Sequence record: SRR20825019_719
Strand: one strand, 5' to 3'
DNA: 64,000 bases
In this document: one piece after another, positions 11,802 to 43,834 of the stretch
Numbering within the stretch: the stretch's first letter is position 1
Layout of the letters: each line of letters opens with the position of its first letter
The notes under the pieces: model-generated
Database searches by the model: none
Told to the model about the DNA's origin: nothing
The model's input: only the letters and a program-made list of their open reading frames with translations
Program-made: the position numbers and the translations under genes

Positions 11802-12677
11802 ATGAGCAGACACATGGCAACAAGACTTTTTTTTCTTCATCAGGACAATGAATATCTGAAATGGATATTCATTATTTTTGGCTTGTTTGCCATGTATCTG
11901 CCCACGTTTCTCAATTTATCGGACAGACTCTGGCAGTCGGAAGATCATGCACATGGGCCTTTTGTTTTACTGATTACCCTGTTTTTGTTCTGGCAACAAC
12001 GCGATGCACTGCTAACAGAGCAGGGCGAAAAGCCCTATCCTGTGCTGGGCTCAGTCATTTTTGCATTAGGCCTGCTGATTTATCTACTGGGTCGGTCTCA
12101 GGATATTCTGATTTTCGATGCCGGCTCAATGGTCCCCGTTGTCATGGGGCTTATCCTCATGACGAAAGGGTTTAAGACCCTGAGGTCATTGTGGTTCCCG
12201 ATATTTTTTCTTTTATTTTTACTGCCGATCCCCGGTTTTATTATTGATGCCGTGACTTTACCGATGAAAATCGCGGTGTCTTATGTGGCGGAGTCGATCC
12301 TTTACTGGTTTGATTACCCGGTAGCGCGTAACGGCGTGGTCTTATATGTAGGGCCATACCAGCTGTTAGTTGCCGATGCCTGTGCCGGACTACAAACATT
12401 AATTTCACTGGAAGCGCTGGGCTTGCTCTATCTGCATTTAGTGAAGCATGACTCATTTTTACGCAATTGCCTGCTGGCGCTGGCCATTATTCCCATCTCA
12501 TTTACGGCTAATGTGACACGTGTATTAGCATTAATCCTTGTAACTTATTATTTTGGTGATGAGGTAGGTCAATCTTATCTCCATGACTTTGCTGGATTGT
12601 TTTTATTCATCGTGGCATTAACCCTCATCATCTCTGTTGATACTTTGTTATCGAAGTATTTAAGAGATGCCAAGTAA
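11802..12677 (+). CDS. xrtB: Exosortase B (EpsH-type)
   Basis: Multi-TM; catalytic motifs VADACAG, NVTRV, LHDFAG; followed by separate EpsI. Confidence 0.88.
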   Translation: MSRHMATRLFFLHQDNEYLKWIFIIFGLFAMYLPTFLNLSDRLWQSEDHAHGPFVLLITLFLFWQQRDALLTEQGEKPYPVLGSVIFALGLLIYLLGRSQDILIFDAGSMVPVVMGLILMTKGFKTLRSLWFPIFFLLFLLPIPGFIIDAVTLPMKIAVSYVAESILYWFDYPVARNGVVLYVGPYQLLVADACAGLQTLISLEALGLLYLHLVKHDSFLRNCLLALAIIPISFTANVTRVLALILVTYYFGDEVGQSYLHDFAGLFLFIVALTLIISVDTLLSKYLRDAK

Positions 12678-39179: not shown

Positions 39180-39204
39180 TTGATTTCCTGAACAGTTCAA
39201 TCAG

Positions 39205-39238
39205 AAAAGCCCCGGCTGTCCAGCCGGGGCTTTTTTTT
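39205..39238 (+). terminator. pnp terminator
   Basis: AAAAGCCCCGGCTG-TC-CAGCCGGGGCTTTTTTTT. Confidence 0.9.
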
Positions 39239-39304
39239 GCCTTGAATTCAGAGCGAGAGCGGCGCTTTTCATAAGCTCTGAGCTTAACTAATTTTATGTA
39301 TAAA

Positions 39305-39320
39305 CGTGATGTGCATCACA
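39305..39320. promoter_or_regulatory. CRP-family binding-site-like element
   Basis: CGTGA-N6-TCACA flanked by A-tracts (one mismatch to TGTGA-N6-TCACA). Confidence 0.5.
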
Positions 39321-39436
39321 AAACAGAAAAACAATTAGTAAATCACTAAACTTTTCGTTATTATCGCCAATAAGGGCATCGAATATATCGAATATTCGTA
39401 TTAATGGATTAATTAAACCTTGTAGAGGGTGGAGAG

Positions 39437-40858
39437 ATGCAAAAAACGAAATTAGCGCAAATTATAACAATAGGCTTGGTTTTATCCCTATCGGTAGGTT
39501 GTAGCGGCAGCAGCAGTAAATCAGTCAAAAGTTCCGGCGGCGGCGATATGGTCGATGGTGGCGGTGGTGGTGACACAGGTGGTGGTGATGGTGCCGCAAC
39601 CACAGGGGTAGAAACTCTGGTTGATGATAGTGGTGGCATTGTTGACGGCGTGGGAGAAACAGTAACGGCACTGGGCAGTACTGTAAGTCAGATAGACTTA
39701 CTGGGAACAGGTGAAGTGACCAGTGGTACCGGTGAAATTCTCAGTAACACTGGTGAGGCAGTGAGCAGCATTGGAGATGGCCTGAGTGATGGTCTTGGCT
39801 CCTTAAGTGAGAATGACAATGCCATTGGTACTACATTGGCAGGCGTATCCGGTGCGGTCTCAGAAACTGGTGAGGCCGTTTCCTCTGCCGGAAATACGGT
39901 AGAAAGCCTGAACACATTACCGGTTTTTGCCCAAATTGATGAATCTACAGGCTTGCTGACAGCACTCGGTGGCACCGTAGATTCATTGGGCGGGGTAGTC
40001 ACCGAAACAGGTGACACGCTGACTGTTGCCTTTATCCAGGAAGATGGTCATTTAAGCGGACTTACAACTGAGCTAACGGCCGTTGTAAGACCGCTGGTAA
40101 CCAACATCGGTGGCACGACACAAGTGGTCGGTGAGGCTCTGGTTGTCGGGCCTGTTGCTAATAATATATTGACCGAAGTCGGCACAGCCGTTGTCGTTCT
40201 GGGTAACGATCTTAAAGATGAAAATAATGCGGTCTTAGCTGGCGTCGGTGGAACAGTTGAAGGCGTTGGTCAACTTGTAATCCACACTGGTGGCATTTTA
40301 TCGGTGAGTGACAGCGGCGAAGGCGAACTATTTGATCTGGCAGGATTGTTGGATACCAGTGGAGTACCGGTGCTTGGCTCGGGTGATGGGGAGCCACTCG
40401 GAGGTACTGACGGTGTTGTTGGTACAGTCACTGGTACCGTTGATGGTCTGACCGGAGGTGAAGGCGGCCTGCTTGGTGGCACTGATGGTGTCGTTGGTAC
40501 GGTCACAGATACAGTTGATGGTCTGACCGGAGGAGAAGGCGGTCTGCTTGGTGGCACAGACGGTGTGGTTGGTACAGTGACTGATACCGTTGATGGCCTT
40601 ACAGGTGGTGATGACTTACTCGGTGGTGTGACAGGCACAGTTGATGGCCTAACTGGCGGTGATGATCTGCTGGGTGGCGTCACCGGTACGGTCGAGGGTT
40701 TAACAGGCGGCGATGACTTACTGGGCGGTGTGACAGATACGGTCGATGGTGTCTCTGGTGGACTGCTTGATACTGGTAGCGGGGATGGCAGTGATGGTGG
40801 ACTTGTCGATCAGGTCGATGATGCACTGCTTGATCCGGTGCTGGGGGGCATTCTTTAA
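39437..40858 (+). CDS. Gly/Thr/Val/Asp-rich repeat lipoprotein (candidate passenger or partner of adjacent TpsB)
   Basis: RBS, signal peptide with lipobox LSVGC, Gly linker, heptad Gly region, C-terminal tandem repeats. Confidence 0.8.
   Translation: MQKTKLAQIITIGLVLSLSVGCSGSSSKSVKSSGGGDMVDGGGGGDTGGGDGAATTGVETLVDDSGGIVDGVGETVTALGSTVSQIDLLGTGEVTSGTGEILSNTGEAVSSIGDGLSDGLGSLSENDNAIGTTLAGVSGAVSETGEAVSSAGNTVESLNTLPVFAQIDESTGLLTALGGTVDSLGGVVTETGDTLTVAFIQEDGHLSGLTTELTAVVRPLVTNIGGTTQVVGEALVVGPVANNILTEVGTAVVVLGNDLKDENNAVLAGVGGTVEGVGQLVIHTGGILSVSDSGEGELFDLAGLLDTSGVPVLGSGDGEPLGGTDGVVGTVTGTVDGLTGGEGGLLGGTDGVVGTVTDTVDGLTGGEGGLLGGTDGVVGTVTDTVDGLTGGDDLLGGVTGTVDGLTGGDDLLGGVTGTVEGLTGGDDLLGGVTDTVDGVSGGLLDTGSGDGSDGGLVDQVDDALLDPVLGGIL
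40394..40762 (+). repeat. Coding tandem repeats: three 72-75 bp units then three 45-51 bp units
   Basis: LLGGTDGVVGTVTDTVDGLTGGEGG-type units at 40394/40469/40544; LLGGVTGTVDGLTGGDD-type units at 40616/40667/40718. Confidence 0.92.
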
Positions 40859-40966
40859 TTATTCACAAGTGAAACTTGAAGTTTGGACTTAACAGCTGAT
40901 CTCGCCGCTTTCTTGCTCAGAGTAAGGATGTCAGCAGCGCAGTGTGTTGTGCTCCATATCGCTATT

Positions 40967-41004
40967 AGGTGTGGCAATGGTCCCTGTTGCCACACCTTTT
41001 TTTT
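40967..41004 (+). terminator. Intrinsic terminator between repeat lipoprotein and TpsB gene
   Basis: AGGTGTGGCAA-9 nt-TTGCCACACCT followed by T-run. Confidence 0.85.
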
Positions 41005-41042
41005 GCTTAGATATTGTTTATGTTTCATGGAAGACCAGGTTA

Positions 41043-42725
41043 ATGATGAAATCAATGCTATTAAAGACACTCTTTTTCAGTGTGCTAATAACAGGTACAG
41101 CCTGGGCGGTGGAACCGCCCTTTATTGTTGATGAAGCAGAGCAGGAACCCATTGAAAAAGAGAAAACAGAGGTTGATTTACCGGCAGGTGACAGTCTCAG
41201 CACGGCAAAACAGGTCAACACGGTAAGAGTCGAAAAAGTCCAGTTTCAGGGGGGGACGGTATTTGCTCTGGAACAACTGGCTGAAATGGTGAAGCCTCTT
41301 ATCGGCCAGGATGTGACCAGAGCAGAGATTGTCGCAGTATTGCGAAGCATCACGGCAAGATACAAAGAGGCCGGCTATGCCTTGTCATTTGCTTTTCTGC
41401 CTAATCAAAACGCGTCGTCCGGCTTGTTGACCATTGTGCTGGTTGAAGGCTATATCGCCCGTAAAGAAATTATCATTGAAGATGAAGATGTCAGAGATCG
41501 GGTAAGAAAACTGGCAGCCCGGATGGAAGGAGAAAAGCCGCTCACGACCAGGACATTTGAACGTTATGTCAGTCTGATTGAAGCGACCCCCGGCTATAAG
41601 TTCAAAATCCGGGTGCCGAAACCCAAAACGCTGGGTGGGGGAACCACGGTGCGGGTAGAGGAAGTCAGTGCGGACTGGTTTGAGACATCACTTGGCTTTG
41701 ATGACAGTAAAGAGGAAGAACTCAAGCTTTTACCCGGTGTGACATTTAATTCATTAACGGGCTATGGCGATAGATTAACGCTGACAACATTACTGCCTAA
41801 CGATACGGTCAACGAATATTATGCGCTTAACTATCAGCAGGATATCGGCACTGATGGTTTGAGACTGGAACTGGCTGCTAATCACTTTGAAAGCGAAGGT
41901 GATGATCGAATTTTTGTAGCAGATATTCCATTGAACTATCAGGAAAACAAAGATCGCGACACGCTGCGTGCCGGCGTGAAATATCCCTTGCAGCTATCTA
42001 AAAAGTCCTCGTGGTGGATTGGCAGTAATCTGCATTATCTGGATGAGGAAGCAGTCTACGAACTGCAGCGGGAAGACGGTTTAGGCAATGCCGTGGAAAT
42101 AGAAAAGGAATTACGATACTCGGCACTGGAGTTGAACACGGTCTGGACTAAACAACTAACGCGACAAATTTTCAGGTTGTCCGGCAGCATCAAGCAGGGT
42201 ATTGAACTCGGCAATAGTAAAAATAACATCACCGATGCGAATGGTACTCGCTCAGGCACTGAGACGATTCATTTCAATACCGTCAGGCTGGATGGTCTCT
42301 GGCGGTATATGATGAGTCCGAAATGGCGGGTACAGACTAAAGCTAATTTATTCTGGTCAGATGATATTCTGCCGTCTGCTGAGCAAATTCGTTACGGTGG
42401 TCCCCGCTATGGTCGTGGTTACCCCGATGGTCAGGCCCAAGGGGATAAAGGCATGGCTGGCGAACTGGAGTTGCGTTATCTGCAAGCCATCCCAATGCGG
42501 GTTATCAAACGTATAGAACCCTACGTCGTGTTTGATGCGGCCCGCACTAAACTCCGTGCCAATGACAGGGAGCAAGAGCTGGTGTCAGCTGCAGTTGGTA
42601 TTGATATCACGGATACAAATACCTACACGCTGGGACTGGAATATGCCAAGCCATTGGGCGATGCCCACTTTGAAACAGGGGACCGAAGCCCGATTTATAA
42701 CATCAAGCTTCGCTGGCAATTCTGA
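41043..42725 (+). CDS. ShlB/FhaC/HecB (TpsB, Omp85) outer-membrane transporter
   Basis: Signal peptide; POTRA-like (ITARYKEAGY, LVEGYI); beta-barrel with GRGY (VRGY-like) loop; C-terminal LRWQF. Confidence 0.85.
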   Translation: MMKSMLLKTLFFSVLITGTAWAVEPPFIVDEAEQEPIEKEKTEVDLPAGDSLSTAKQVNTVRVEKVQFQGGTVFALEQLAEMVKPLIGQDVTRAEIVAVLRSITARYKEAGYALSFAFLPNQNASSGLLTIVLVEGYIARKEIIIEDEDVRDRVRKLAARMEGEKPLTTRTFERYVSLIEATPGYKFKIRVPKPKTLGGGTTVRVEEVSADWFETSLGFDDSKEEELKLLPGVTFNSLTGYGDRLTLTTLLPNDTVNEYYALNYQQDIGTDGLRLELAANHFESEGDDRIFVADIPLNYQENKDRDTLRAGVKYPLQLSKKSSWWIGSNLHYLDEEAVYELQREDGLGNAVEIEKELRYSALELNTVWTKQLTRQIFRLSGSIKQGIELGNSKNNITDANGTRSGTETIHFNTVRLDGLWRYMMSPKWRVQTKANLFWSDDILPSAEQIRYGGPRYGRGYPDGQAQGDKGMAGELELRYLQAIPMRVIKRIEPYVVFDAARTKLRANDREQELVSAAVGIDITDTNTYTLGLEYAKPLGDAHFETGDRSPIYNIKLRWQF

Positions 42726-42864
42726 TATTCAGAAAAATAGCCAAACGTTTCTCAATATTCTTAATATTCGTTTTATTTGCAGCCTCAATATGTTAAAAAC
42801 AGAACTGGTGTTTGTGCACCGGTCATGATGTCTCATGGCTAAGTTGAGAAATGAGGAGTGAGAG

Positions 42865-43797
42865 ATGCAAAAGAGAAATATTTTATCGTCCTGCCTTGTT
42901 GCTGCAGGACTTTCCCTGTCCTTTACCGCCTCTGCGCTGGAGTTGGATAGTGGATTGCCGACGGATGATGTCGTTGCTGCTGTTGAAGGTACGGTTGCAG
43001 GTGGCAAGCAAGCGGCAACCGGTTTAGTGGGGGAGACGCAAGCCGTTGCCGAAGAAACCGTTGCTGGTGTCGTAGCTCTGACTGGGGAAGAAGATACCGT
43101 GAGCGGTGCCGTCAGCATCGTTGAAGGTGCGGTCGGTGACACTAAATCGTTGATTGGTGCTGAAGACCGCGTAGCAGGTGTTGTGTCAAAAGTCGAAGCA
43201 ACCAAAACGGTTGTCAAGACAACAGCACATGACACAGTCGCCCTTGCGGGTACGGTGGTTCAGGAGACAAAAGCCGTTGCCGGTGGTGCATTGAGTGGTG
43301 TTGAGGATGTGGCTGGTGTCAGTGGGCTCACTGATGGTGCGACAGGCTTGGCCTCCAATACGGTTGATAATGTGACGGTTTTGACTGCTGGTGCCGTTGA
43401 TACCTCGGTGAGCCTGGTTGATGCCACTGTGGATACCGCCACAGGTCTGGTCGGCGGCGTTGATGCGCTCGGTACTGTCAATGACACCGTTGGCGGCGTC
43501 ACTGGTGGGGACCTGTTGGGTACGGATGTACTGGGTACAGTAACGGGTACTCTGGGTGGTGTGACCGGTGGTGAACTGCTGGGTGCCGACGCTGTTGGTA
43601 CTGTCACCGGTACTGTTGGTGGACTGACAGGTGGTGCTTTGCCGGGTACTGAAGTGCTGGGTACGGTGACTGATACTGCTGATGGCCTCACAGGCGGATT
43701 GCTGGATGTCAGTGGCAGCGCCAGTGCGGATGCTGAAGCCTCTGCTTCTGGAGAGTCAGCACTATCAACTGGCCCACTGTTGAGTGGTTTACTATAA
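42865..43797 (+). CDS. Exported Gly/Thr/Val/Ala-rich repeat protein
   Basis: GAGGAG RBS; signal peptide ending TASA; repeats share GTVTxTVxGLTGG with the 39437 protein. Confidence 0.8.
   Translation: MQKRNILSSCLVAAGLSLSFTASALELDSGLPTDDVVAAVEGTVAGGKQAATGLVGETQAVAEETVAGVVALTGEEDTVSGAVSIVEGAVGDTKSLIGAEDRVAGVVSKVEATKTVVKTTAHDTVALAGTVVQETKAVAGGALSGVEDVAGVSGLTDGATGLASNTVDNVTVLTAGAVDTSVSLVDATVDTATGLVGGVDALGTVNDTVGGVTGGDLLGTDVLGTVTGTLGGVTGGELLGADAVGTVTGTVGGLTGGALPGTEVLGTVTDTADGLTGGLLDVSGSASADAEASASGESALSTGPLLSGLL
43462..43707 (+). repeat. Coding tandem repeat, about four 63-bp units
   Basis: DALGTVNDTVGGVTGGDLLGT / DVLGTVTGTLGGVTGGELLGA / DAVGTVTGTVGGLTGGALPGT / EVLGTVTDTADGLTGGLLD. Confidence 0.88.
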
Positions 43798-43804
43798 AAA
43801 TTAT

Positions 43805-43834
43805 GACACCACCGGGAGTTACCCCGGTGGTGTC
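43805..43834 (+). terminator. 12-bp hairpin closing the repeat-protein locus
   Basis: GACACCACCGGG-AGTTAC-CCCGGTGGTGTC; weak U-tail. Confidence 0.7.

Follow-up and report, generated by a model that had tools for sequence, protein, structure and literature searches.

What does a TpsB transporter carry when no TpsA protein is encoded beside it? The question is raised by a three-gene module at positions 39,437 to 43,797 of a 64,000-nucleotide stretch of DNA (sequence record SRR20825019_719; the whole stretch is called the window below), in which a gene for a TpsB-family transporter, open reading frame 2 (ORF2), stands between genes for a lipoprotein (ORF1) and an unlipidated exported protein (ORF3). 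A preliminary description of this locus had proposed an undescribed two-partner-like system building a surface coat or fibre from an anchored and a free subunit. Our analysis points to a non-canonical form of type Vb secretion, in which the clade of this TpsB is probably a dedicated exporter of lipid-anchored, alpha-helical adhesion or aggregation proteins rich in Gly, Thr, Val and Leu. The genes and the parts of the proposed passenger are as follows, with lengths in amino acids (aa).

39437..40858, + strand: ORF1, Collagen_mid lipoprotein and proposed passenger, 473 aa
39437..39601, + strand: lipoprotein signal peptide of ORF1, its lipobox Cys (Cys22) and a flexible Ser/Gly linker (aa 23-55)
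39602..40306, + strand: helical domain of ORF1, aa 56-290 with PF15984 at aa 92-288 and some eight amphipathic helices, by Pfam and structure prediction
40403..40768, + strand: six amphipathic repeats of ORF1 (25-mers and 17-mers), common to ORF3, their copy number varying among relatives
40826..40855, + strand: C-terminal amphipathic motif LLDPVLGGIL of ORF1, a candidate export signal by the end-motif count
41043..42725, + strand: ORF2 (tpsB), TpsB-family Omp85 transporter, 560 aa, by POTRA_2, ShlB and structural model
42865..43797, + strand: ORF3, accessory unlipidated secreted protein, 310 aa

The case for a dedicated exporter is carried by the genes that accompany this transporter. From 80 metagenome loci of the clade, eight with less than 700 bp upstream were left out, and in 66 of the remaining 72 tpsB is preceded, on its own strand, by a Gly-rich, aromatic-poor ORF that ends at most 400 bp away (34 of 38 when near-identical TpsBs are collapsed). 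A Pfam scan of 92 of the 102 proteins selected by composition, up- and downstream of TpsB, found PF15984 (Collagen_mid), the family of ORF1, in 67. Whole genomes give the same picture. Among 400 genomes of the class, PF15984 and the clade TpsB occur in the same three, below which the scores drop from E 1e-163 to 1e-78, and among 301 genomes of the order they occur in the same four, all of which were already counted. In 121 genomes of one family PF15984 was found in 15, always directly upstream of a clade TpsB, and TpsB in 19; three of the other four have a second repeat family upstream and one (G429) has three copies of it elsewhere. Among 71 Methylophagaceae, PF15984 is present in nine and TpsB in ten; in the tenth a truncated repeat gene lies upstream of TpsB. 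Thus, all 25 distinct PF15984 genomes carry a clade TpsB (side by side with PF15984 in 24, the pair being split by a contig end in the last), and all 30 genomes with a clade TpsB encode a Gly-rich partner: PF15984 in 25, adjacent 'LAPVTGLV'-repeat lipoproteins in three, the adjacent truncated repeat gene in one, and G429. Such co-occurrence had been set beforehand as the test on which the proposal could fail, and the neighbourhood analysis found it across several orders.

The settings of the gene pair are unrelated to one another: here it follows pnp, in 17 of 38 long loci it has tad genes for neighbours, and further loci place it elsewhere. Its patchy distribution and different chromosomal settings argue for joint gain and loss, and it is from genomic linkage only that we infer that ORF1 would be transported by its TpsB. 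The conserved core is two genes, ORF1 and tpsB. An obligate link to Tad pili was considered and ruled out, as no more than those 17 loci are tad-flanked and neither RcpC nor CpaB was found in G337, G002 or G004.

Several partners depart from the PF15984 type. A second family of Gly-rich lipoproteins, made up of long 'LAPV..LV..L.DP..G.L.PVTGLV' repeats and matched by nothing in Pfam and nothing meaningful in NCBIfam, takes the place of the PF15984 gene in tad-linked pseudomonad-like loci; it was seen in L024, L026-L028, L034, L039, L040, L045, L049, L124-L126, L154 and L157, mostly inside tad clusters. The partner in L017 is short and consists of repeats only. Divergent PF15984 gene pairs occur in Ralstonia and Cupriavidus, and in L066 (7734-8246, checked with Pfam) and related Burkholderiales-like loci a DUF2147 gene directly follows the clade TpsB, in the position of bcal1520 of Burkholderia.

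ORF2 is a TpsB by testable features. In Pfam it matches POTRA_2 (E 4.5e-19) and, above the cut-off, the ShlB family, and it comprises a signal peptide, a short N-terminal segment, two POTRA domains, a 16-strand barrel and a loop-6 GRGY motif. The tpsB start at ATG 41043 is backed by homologues. In the AlphaFold2 (AF2) model, with a predicted local distance difference test (pLDDT) of 85, POTRA folds lie at aa 63-134 and 137-210 and DSSP assigns 16 barrel strands; the top folds are CdiB (6wim, TM 0.66) and FhaC (4ql0), with BamA and TamA behind. The segment GPRYGRGYPD aligns to GESSVRGFKD of CdiB, at the loop-6 (V/I)RG(Y/F) motif, with R458 at least 90% conserved and Y460 invariant in 40 sequences. 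The plug helix H1, which most TpsBs have, was not modelled at aa 23-50, where pLDDT is below 50. The TpsBs derived from the loci form one clade (FastTree support 1.0), apart from TpsBs that lie beside TPS-domain proteins, in a tree of 79 of 117 sequences from which near-duplicates and sequences shorter than 500 aa had been left out. The closest relatives, among the five close loci listed, come from Methylophaga assemblies (69-91% identity). Relatives carry names from Methylophaga, Neptuniibacter, Halomonas, Chromohalobacter, Tepidicaulis, Oceanimonas, Atlantibacter, Burkholderia, Rhodanobacter and Diaphorobacter, and also from Ralstonia and Cupriavidus replicons; the plasmid records have no annotation at the TpsB locus.

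Some unusual TpsB genes were also seen. In L167 (G563:C12, 958-4226) tpsB is split over two frames (265 and 295 aa), which may reflect decay after loss of the transporter or an assembly error, and the partner repeats there are Lys-rich, not acidic. Outside the clade, TpsB-like genes with no TpsA within about 6 kb occur in L135, L136 and L139-L142, two of these loci being short-flanked, and L139 holds a tandem pair of them.

It had been noted at the outset that neither a two-partner secretion (TPS) domain nor an NPNG motif is visible beside this transporter, and profile and motif searches agree. The TPS domain (PF05860) was found neither in ORF1 and ORF3, nor in the 92 partner proteins, the 100 clade loci or the window, with a profile that recovered all five seeds and one further TpsA in control loci; ORF1 and ORF3 also lack NPNG or NPN motifs. 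That the true TpsA might be encoded elsewhere was not supported by the relatives that were compared: none lies near a clade TpsB, the single-contig genome G337 has a TpsA with its own separate TpsB, and in the Methylophaga assemblies G002-G004 no TPS domain was found and the clade TpsB is the only TpsB. The module shares with the type Vb systems FhaC/FHA, CdiB/CdiA and ShlB/ShlA its two POTRA domains, 16-strand barrel, loop-6 RG(Y/F) and adjacent cargo gene. In contrast to them, its partners are 270-940 aa long, lipidated, predicted to be alpha-helical and without TPS domain or NPNG, and the TpsB is only 13-18% identical to CdiB and FhaC, with no H1 helix predicted in a region of low confidence. 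The module also resembles Slam (type XI), in which an outer-membrane barrel is encoded beside lipoproteins that it is thought to deliver to the surface; however, Slam is not known to be an Omp85 or POTRA protein and its substrates are beta-barrel lipoproteins, whereas in this module a TpsB provides the barrel and helices are predicted for the cargo. Because the features that define a TpsA were searched for and not found, the module is most likely two-partner-like, with a dedicated TpsB and an adjacent proposed cargo, but not canonical two-partner secretion.

What, then, is the cargo? The lengths, acidity, near-absence of aromatic residues and shared repeat reported earlier for the proteins of these three ORFs were confirmed by ORF calls and composition. 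ORF1 contains 24% Gly, 68 Asp and Glu residues against six Lys and Arg, and three aromatic residues (F/W/Y); ORF3 contains 17% Gly, 38 against nine, and one. Pfam, named as a check in the preliminary description, finds Collagen_mid at residues 92-288 of ORF1 (E 1.2e-44, 152.9 bits against a gathering cut-off of 31.1) and a TPS domain in neither flanking protein, and the Atlas groups ORF1 with clusters of the same Collagen_mid name (score 0.92); NCBIfam names neither ORF1 nor ORF3. Cys22 is invariant in all 33 aligned relatives, among which the length of the linker is highly variable. The AF2 model of ORF1, built on 50 sequences, contains alpha helices only, six of them 24-30 residues long, with pLDDT 72 (39 to 72 over the five models) and a predicted template-modelling score (pTM) of 0.61, and the hydrophobic periodicity is strongest at 100-105 degrees. 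Gly-X-Y runs reach no more than three triplets in ORF1 and two in ORF3, unlike the long uninterrupted runs of bacterial collagens of the Scl/Bcl type. The family name PF15984 is therefore misleading for ORF1, which is predicted to be all-alpha, not collagen, and a collagen triple helix for this protein is contradicted by its sequence. With the helical domain as query, Foldseek gave no clear fold match (best E 0.07), and VIA gave at best Z 10.2 to designed 7-helix bundles (root-mean-square deviation 4.4, 199 aligned) and Z of about 9 to TolC-type barrels, a range that the tool rates as generic for helical bundles.

The partners differ in their domains but have in common a signal peptide, mostly with a lipobox, amphipathic repeats of Gly, Thr, Val and Leu, and an LLGGL-like C-terminus. 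The repeat had been given as GTVTxTVxGLTGG-x-LLG. Its core, V(T/N)xT(V/L/A)xG(L/V)(T/S)GG, indeed occurs six times in ORF1 and four times in ORF3 and not once in 2000 shuffles of each, although the spacer before LLG is one to three residues long and not always one. Of 68 distinct partner ends, 54 have a hydrophobic-Gly-Gly-hydrophobic motif within their final 16 aa, as do 10% of shuffles, 26% of 16-mers taken from inside the proteins and none of 355 other ORFs; the motif was defined after the sequences had been inspected. Since the lipid would fix the N-terminus of a partner in the membrane, a C-terminal signal is the natural reading, and the amphipathic segment at the end of the partners is a candidate for it.

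ORF3 is an accessory component, because it occurs in only four of the ten Methylophagaceae genomes with a clade TpsB (four of the 71 genomes of the family), always beside tpsB, and it was found neither in G337 nor in G004. A design of one anchored and one free subunit, as had been suggested for this locus, is thus not supported as a general rule; an anchored-plus-free coat is possible in some lineages. The protein has a helical N-terminal half, the four shared repeats, a short alternating Ala/Ser stretch and an LLSGLL end, and it resembles ORF1 chiefly in its C-terminal repeats and in the motif at its end. By inspection its signal peptide is of the Sec type without a lipobox (ASA|LE, with TSASA in P0085 and P0086). 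No Pfam or NCBIfam match exceeds the cut-off, a PF15984 profile built from 50 domains does not match it, and the Atlas offers only weak (0.79), unnamed actinobacterial matches. Relatives are few (one among 8000 scored candidates, two among 1.84 billion representatives), in searches that are limited by the low complexity of ORF3. L045, immediately after TpsB, and G429/L157 likewise encode unlipidated repeat proteins with an end of this kind, so free companions would have arisen more than once. In one Methylophaga assembly (L005, 4171-4926) the ORF3 homologue is followed by a gene for a further acidic, aromatic-free secreted protein (251 aa, with a Pro/Ala linker and no Pfam match).

Relatives of ORF1 have been studied in Burkholderia. 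The PF15984 lipoproteins of that genus (Bcc-CLPs) were described as a new class of adhesins, non-homologous to known bacterial collagen-like proteins, in a family counted at about 2,250 proteins; according to the same account, bcal1524-1523-1522-1520 may form an operon, and the outer-membrane protein encoded by bcal1522 is called 'putative exported heme utilization-related' (PMC10224339). BCAL1524 is found in outer-membrane vesicles; a deletion mutant autoaggregates less (residual optical density 17.7% vs 11.9%), a change that was complemented, and there is an effect in Galleria as well (PMC10303873). On contact with host membranes bcal1520, bcal1523 and bcal1524 are induced together with flp genes (PMC7970998). 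A further protein, BPSL1902, has been named as a predicted S-layer protein (PMC3443583), which we do not count as evidence here. ORF1 shares PF15984, the lipobox, a low-complexity linker and repeats with BCAL1523 and BCAL1524, and the order and size of bcal1524-bcal1523-bcal1522 (the last 1686 nt) match those of L084 (562, 475 and 561 aa); the Methylophaga protein differs in being acidic, not tad-linked and accompanied by ORF3. From gene order and size alone we infer that BCAL1522 is probably a clade TpsB. The available text of the Bcc-CLP papers neither identifies bcal1522 as a TpsB nor proposes export through BCAL1522, and the terms 'TpsB', 'two-partner' and 'ShlB' are absent from the main text of PMC10224339. 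A literature search, with most subscription journals and supplements outside its scope, found no paper linking the PF15984 family to TpsB. The word undescribed thus stands for the system, but not for its parts, since the lipoprotein family is known from Pfam and from the Burkholderia papers.

The boundaries and signals of the module bear on how much of each protein would be made:

39203..39240, + strand: intrinsic terminator of pnp and upstream boundary of the module, -26 kcal/mol, z -4.7, with a U run behind it
39305..39320, no strand assigned: CRP/FNR-family-like box TGTGA-N6-TCACA, 9/10 match, 132 nt upstream of the ORF1 start
40967..41005, + strand: internal intrinsic terminator in the gap between ORF1 and tpsB, -22 kcal/mol, z -5.6
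43805..43834, no strand assigned: downstream hairpin, probable terminator, z -6.9

The module is set between pnp on one side and a DUF815 ATPase gene on the other, and hairpins flank it, in line with the bounding terminators of the preliminary description, but the U-tail of the downstream one is weak on the + strand (it is called as a terminator on the - strand only), and a third, strong terminator lies inside, which, like the TGTGA-N6-TCACA box, that description does not mention. This internal terminator is kept in all eight aligned Methylophaga sequences, with paired changes in the stem, and a terminator between the two genes was found in 20 of 37 clade loci, against 43 of 185 shuffles (23%). 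The TGTGA-N6-TCACA box, presumably bound by a CRP/FNR-type regulator and a candidate only, scores at least 9/10 in seven of 11 Methylophaga upstream regions, at -131 to -134 in six and at -88 in one; only two sites in the window reach that score. Tandem AATAT(T/A)(T/C)C-like direct repeats upstream of ORF1 (~39378-39400) and of ORF3 (~42750-42772), partly retained in relatives, are possibly sites of a regulator common to both genes. A sigma-54 site was not found in the window; sites scoring at least 10/12 occur in nine of 38 clade loci, all Burkholderiales-like by sequence (1% in shuffles). In such loci (L057-L090; L092 9706-10032) a conserved sigma-54 promoter precedes the first PF15984 gene, and at the Ralstonia locus the pair of PF15984 genes has between them the sigma-54 sites listed for RSp1093 and RSp1094 (PMC4371752). 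Codon changes relative to L002 are mostly synonymous (synonymous to amino-acid-changing 239:52 in ORF1 and 148:50 in ORF3), thus both genes are under purifying selection. ORF1 and ORF3 are also covered by identical contigs in one run guessed to be RNA, and contigs can neither rank genes nor prove transcription. The entire window is present, without a difference, in one contig of a public run that is possibly its source. Elsewhere in the window (3709-29589) lies a large exopolysaccharide cluster, ordinary in appearance, with genes for an exosortase EpsH (11802-12677), an EpsI-like DUF3485 protein, a PPIase/SurA-like protein and a beta-barrel porin, together with chain-length-like, flippase-like and glycosyltransferase genes.

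With these features in mind, one may propose how the system would work. Because a terminator lies between the two genes, ORF1 would be made in excess of TpsB. With its lipobox, ORF1 would be exported by Sec, lipidated at Cys22 and carried by Lol to the outer membrane, as is established for lipoproteins. Its low-complexity chain, nearly free of aromatic residues, may stay unfolded and thread through the barrel, an amphipathic segment, most likely the LLGGL-like C-terminal helix or the repeats, occupying the POTRA groove instead of a TPS domain. In FhaC the POTRA2 groove fits amphipathic extended segments, and H1 is dispensable (PMC5422565). Outside, the predicted helical bundle with its string of short amphipathic helices would be held by the lipid through the Gly/Ser linker and, to judge from the Burkholderia data, would self-associate or stick to surfaces. 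More tentatively, ORF3 may serve as a second, releasable passenger in some Methylophaga, because it shares the repeats and the end motif of ORF1 and is not lipidated.

A further-reaching model, which we can offer only tentatively, would make these modules a new branch of type V secretion, in which the TpsB reads the C-terminal amphipathic helix and all-alpha lipid-anchored proteins, made in large excess, form a surface coat or fibre with ORF3-like proteins as free subunits. Under this model there would be a surface route for the approximately 2,250 PF15984 proteins and for a second, unnamed repeat family. It is unlikely, on the other hand, that the TpsB acts as an insertase or flippase from which the lipid anchor or the amphipathic helices pass laterally into the outer leaflet, then lying on or in the membrane in an apolipoprotein-like or glycine-zipper-like manner and shaping membranes or vesicles instead of serving as an adhesin. 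The strong amphipathic periodicity, with Gly spaced at i+7, the presence of BCAL1524 in vesicles (PMC10303873) and the lack of a predicted H1, itself a low-confidence call, would all suit such a role. However, ORF2 is nearer in fold to the CdiB and FhaC translocators than to BamA or TamA, the polar faces of ORF1 are rich in acidic residues (the 68 Asp and Glu), and its fold matches to membrane proteins, with Z no higher than 10.2, are those expected of any helical bundle.

We also think it rather improbable that the lipoprotein faces the periplasm as an accessory of the TpsB, comparable to the Bam lipoproteins or BcpO, with a part of the Tad pilus or a TpsA encoded elsewhere as the true cargo. 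Accessory lipoproteins of the BcpO type do exist in some TPS operons (PMC5422565), and the tad genes beside 17 of the 38 long loci, like the joint induction of bcal1520, bcal1523 and bcal1524 with flp genes (PMC7970998), would fit a pilus connection, but G337, G002 and G004 have no RcpC/CpaB, G002-G004 have no TPS domain, and the TpsA of G337 is already paired. Moreover, the partners come as paralogues of 267-935 aa with variable repeat counts and interchangeable domains, unlike a fixed subunit, and the internal terminator suggests an excess of lipoprotein over transporter. That these are true collagen-like triple-helix adhesins lying near a TpsB by chance is very improbable despite the Pfam and Atlas names, given a longest Gly-X-Y run of three, the helices of the AF2 model, the non-homology to known bacterial collagen-like proteins (PMC10224339) and the linkage of PF15984 to TpsB in 25 of 25 genomes.

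Several observations weigh against a dedicated exporter of helical lipoproteins. The genomes compared are related and hence are non-independent observations, and the assemblies G002-G004, which yielded no TpsA, are not complete. A TpsB without an adjacent partner, judged by the locus flanks, occurs in L052, L056, L065 and L067, which form a nested long-branch subclade, in L080, which has the same upstream gene as L052 and is too short for the tree, and in L071, which stands apart. The C-terminal motif is absent from 14 of the 68 ends and is also found internally (26%). In B. cenocepacia J2315 three of the five PF15984 genes lie off the operon (PMC10224339), so their products would be exported in trans, or not at all. 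The presence of BCAL1524 in vesicles does not show surface exposure, and its effect on autoaggregation is modest. Finally, TpsA proteins are described as large (100-650 kDa) and all predicted to be beta-helical (PMC5422565), and an alpha-helical, lipidated passenger is therefore without precedent in that account. Five of the six partner-less loci belong to one divergent subgroup (L052, L056, L065, L067 and L080), in which TpsB is mostly followed by a response regulator and a prepilin-peptidase-like gene; this subgroup may be a relic of a lost block of tad and partner genes.

TpsB transporters are defined by their beta-helical cargo with a TPS domain, and the routes by which lipoproteins reach the Gram-negative surface are only partly known. 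A TpsB clade tied to small helical lipoproteins would make it testable which signal the POTRA groove accepts, whether folding into a beta-helix is needed for export, and how a lipid-anchored chain crosses a barrel. Such a clade would also explain a misnamed Pfam family, not collagen, whose Burkholderia members have no known route of export and are already under discussion as adhesins and vaccine antigens.

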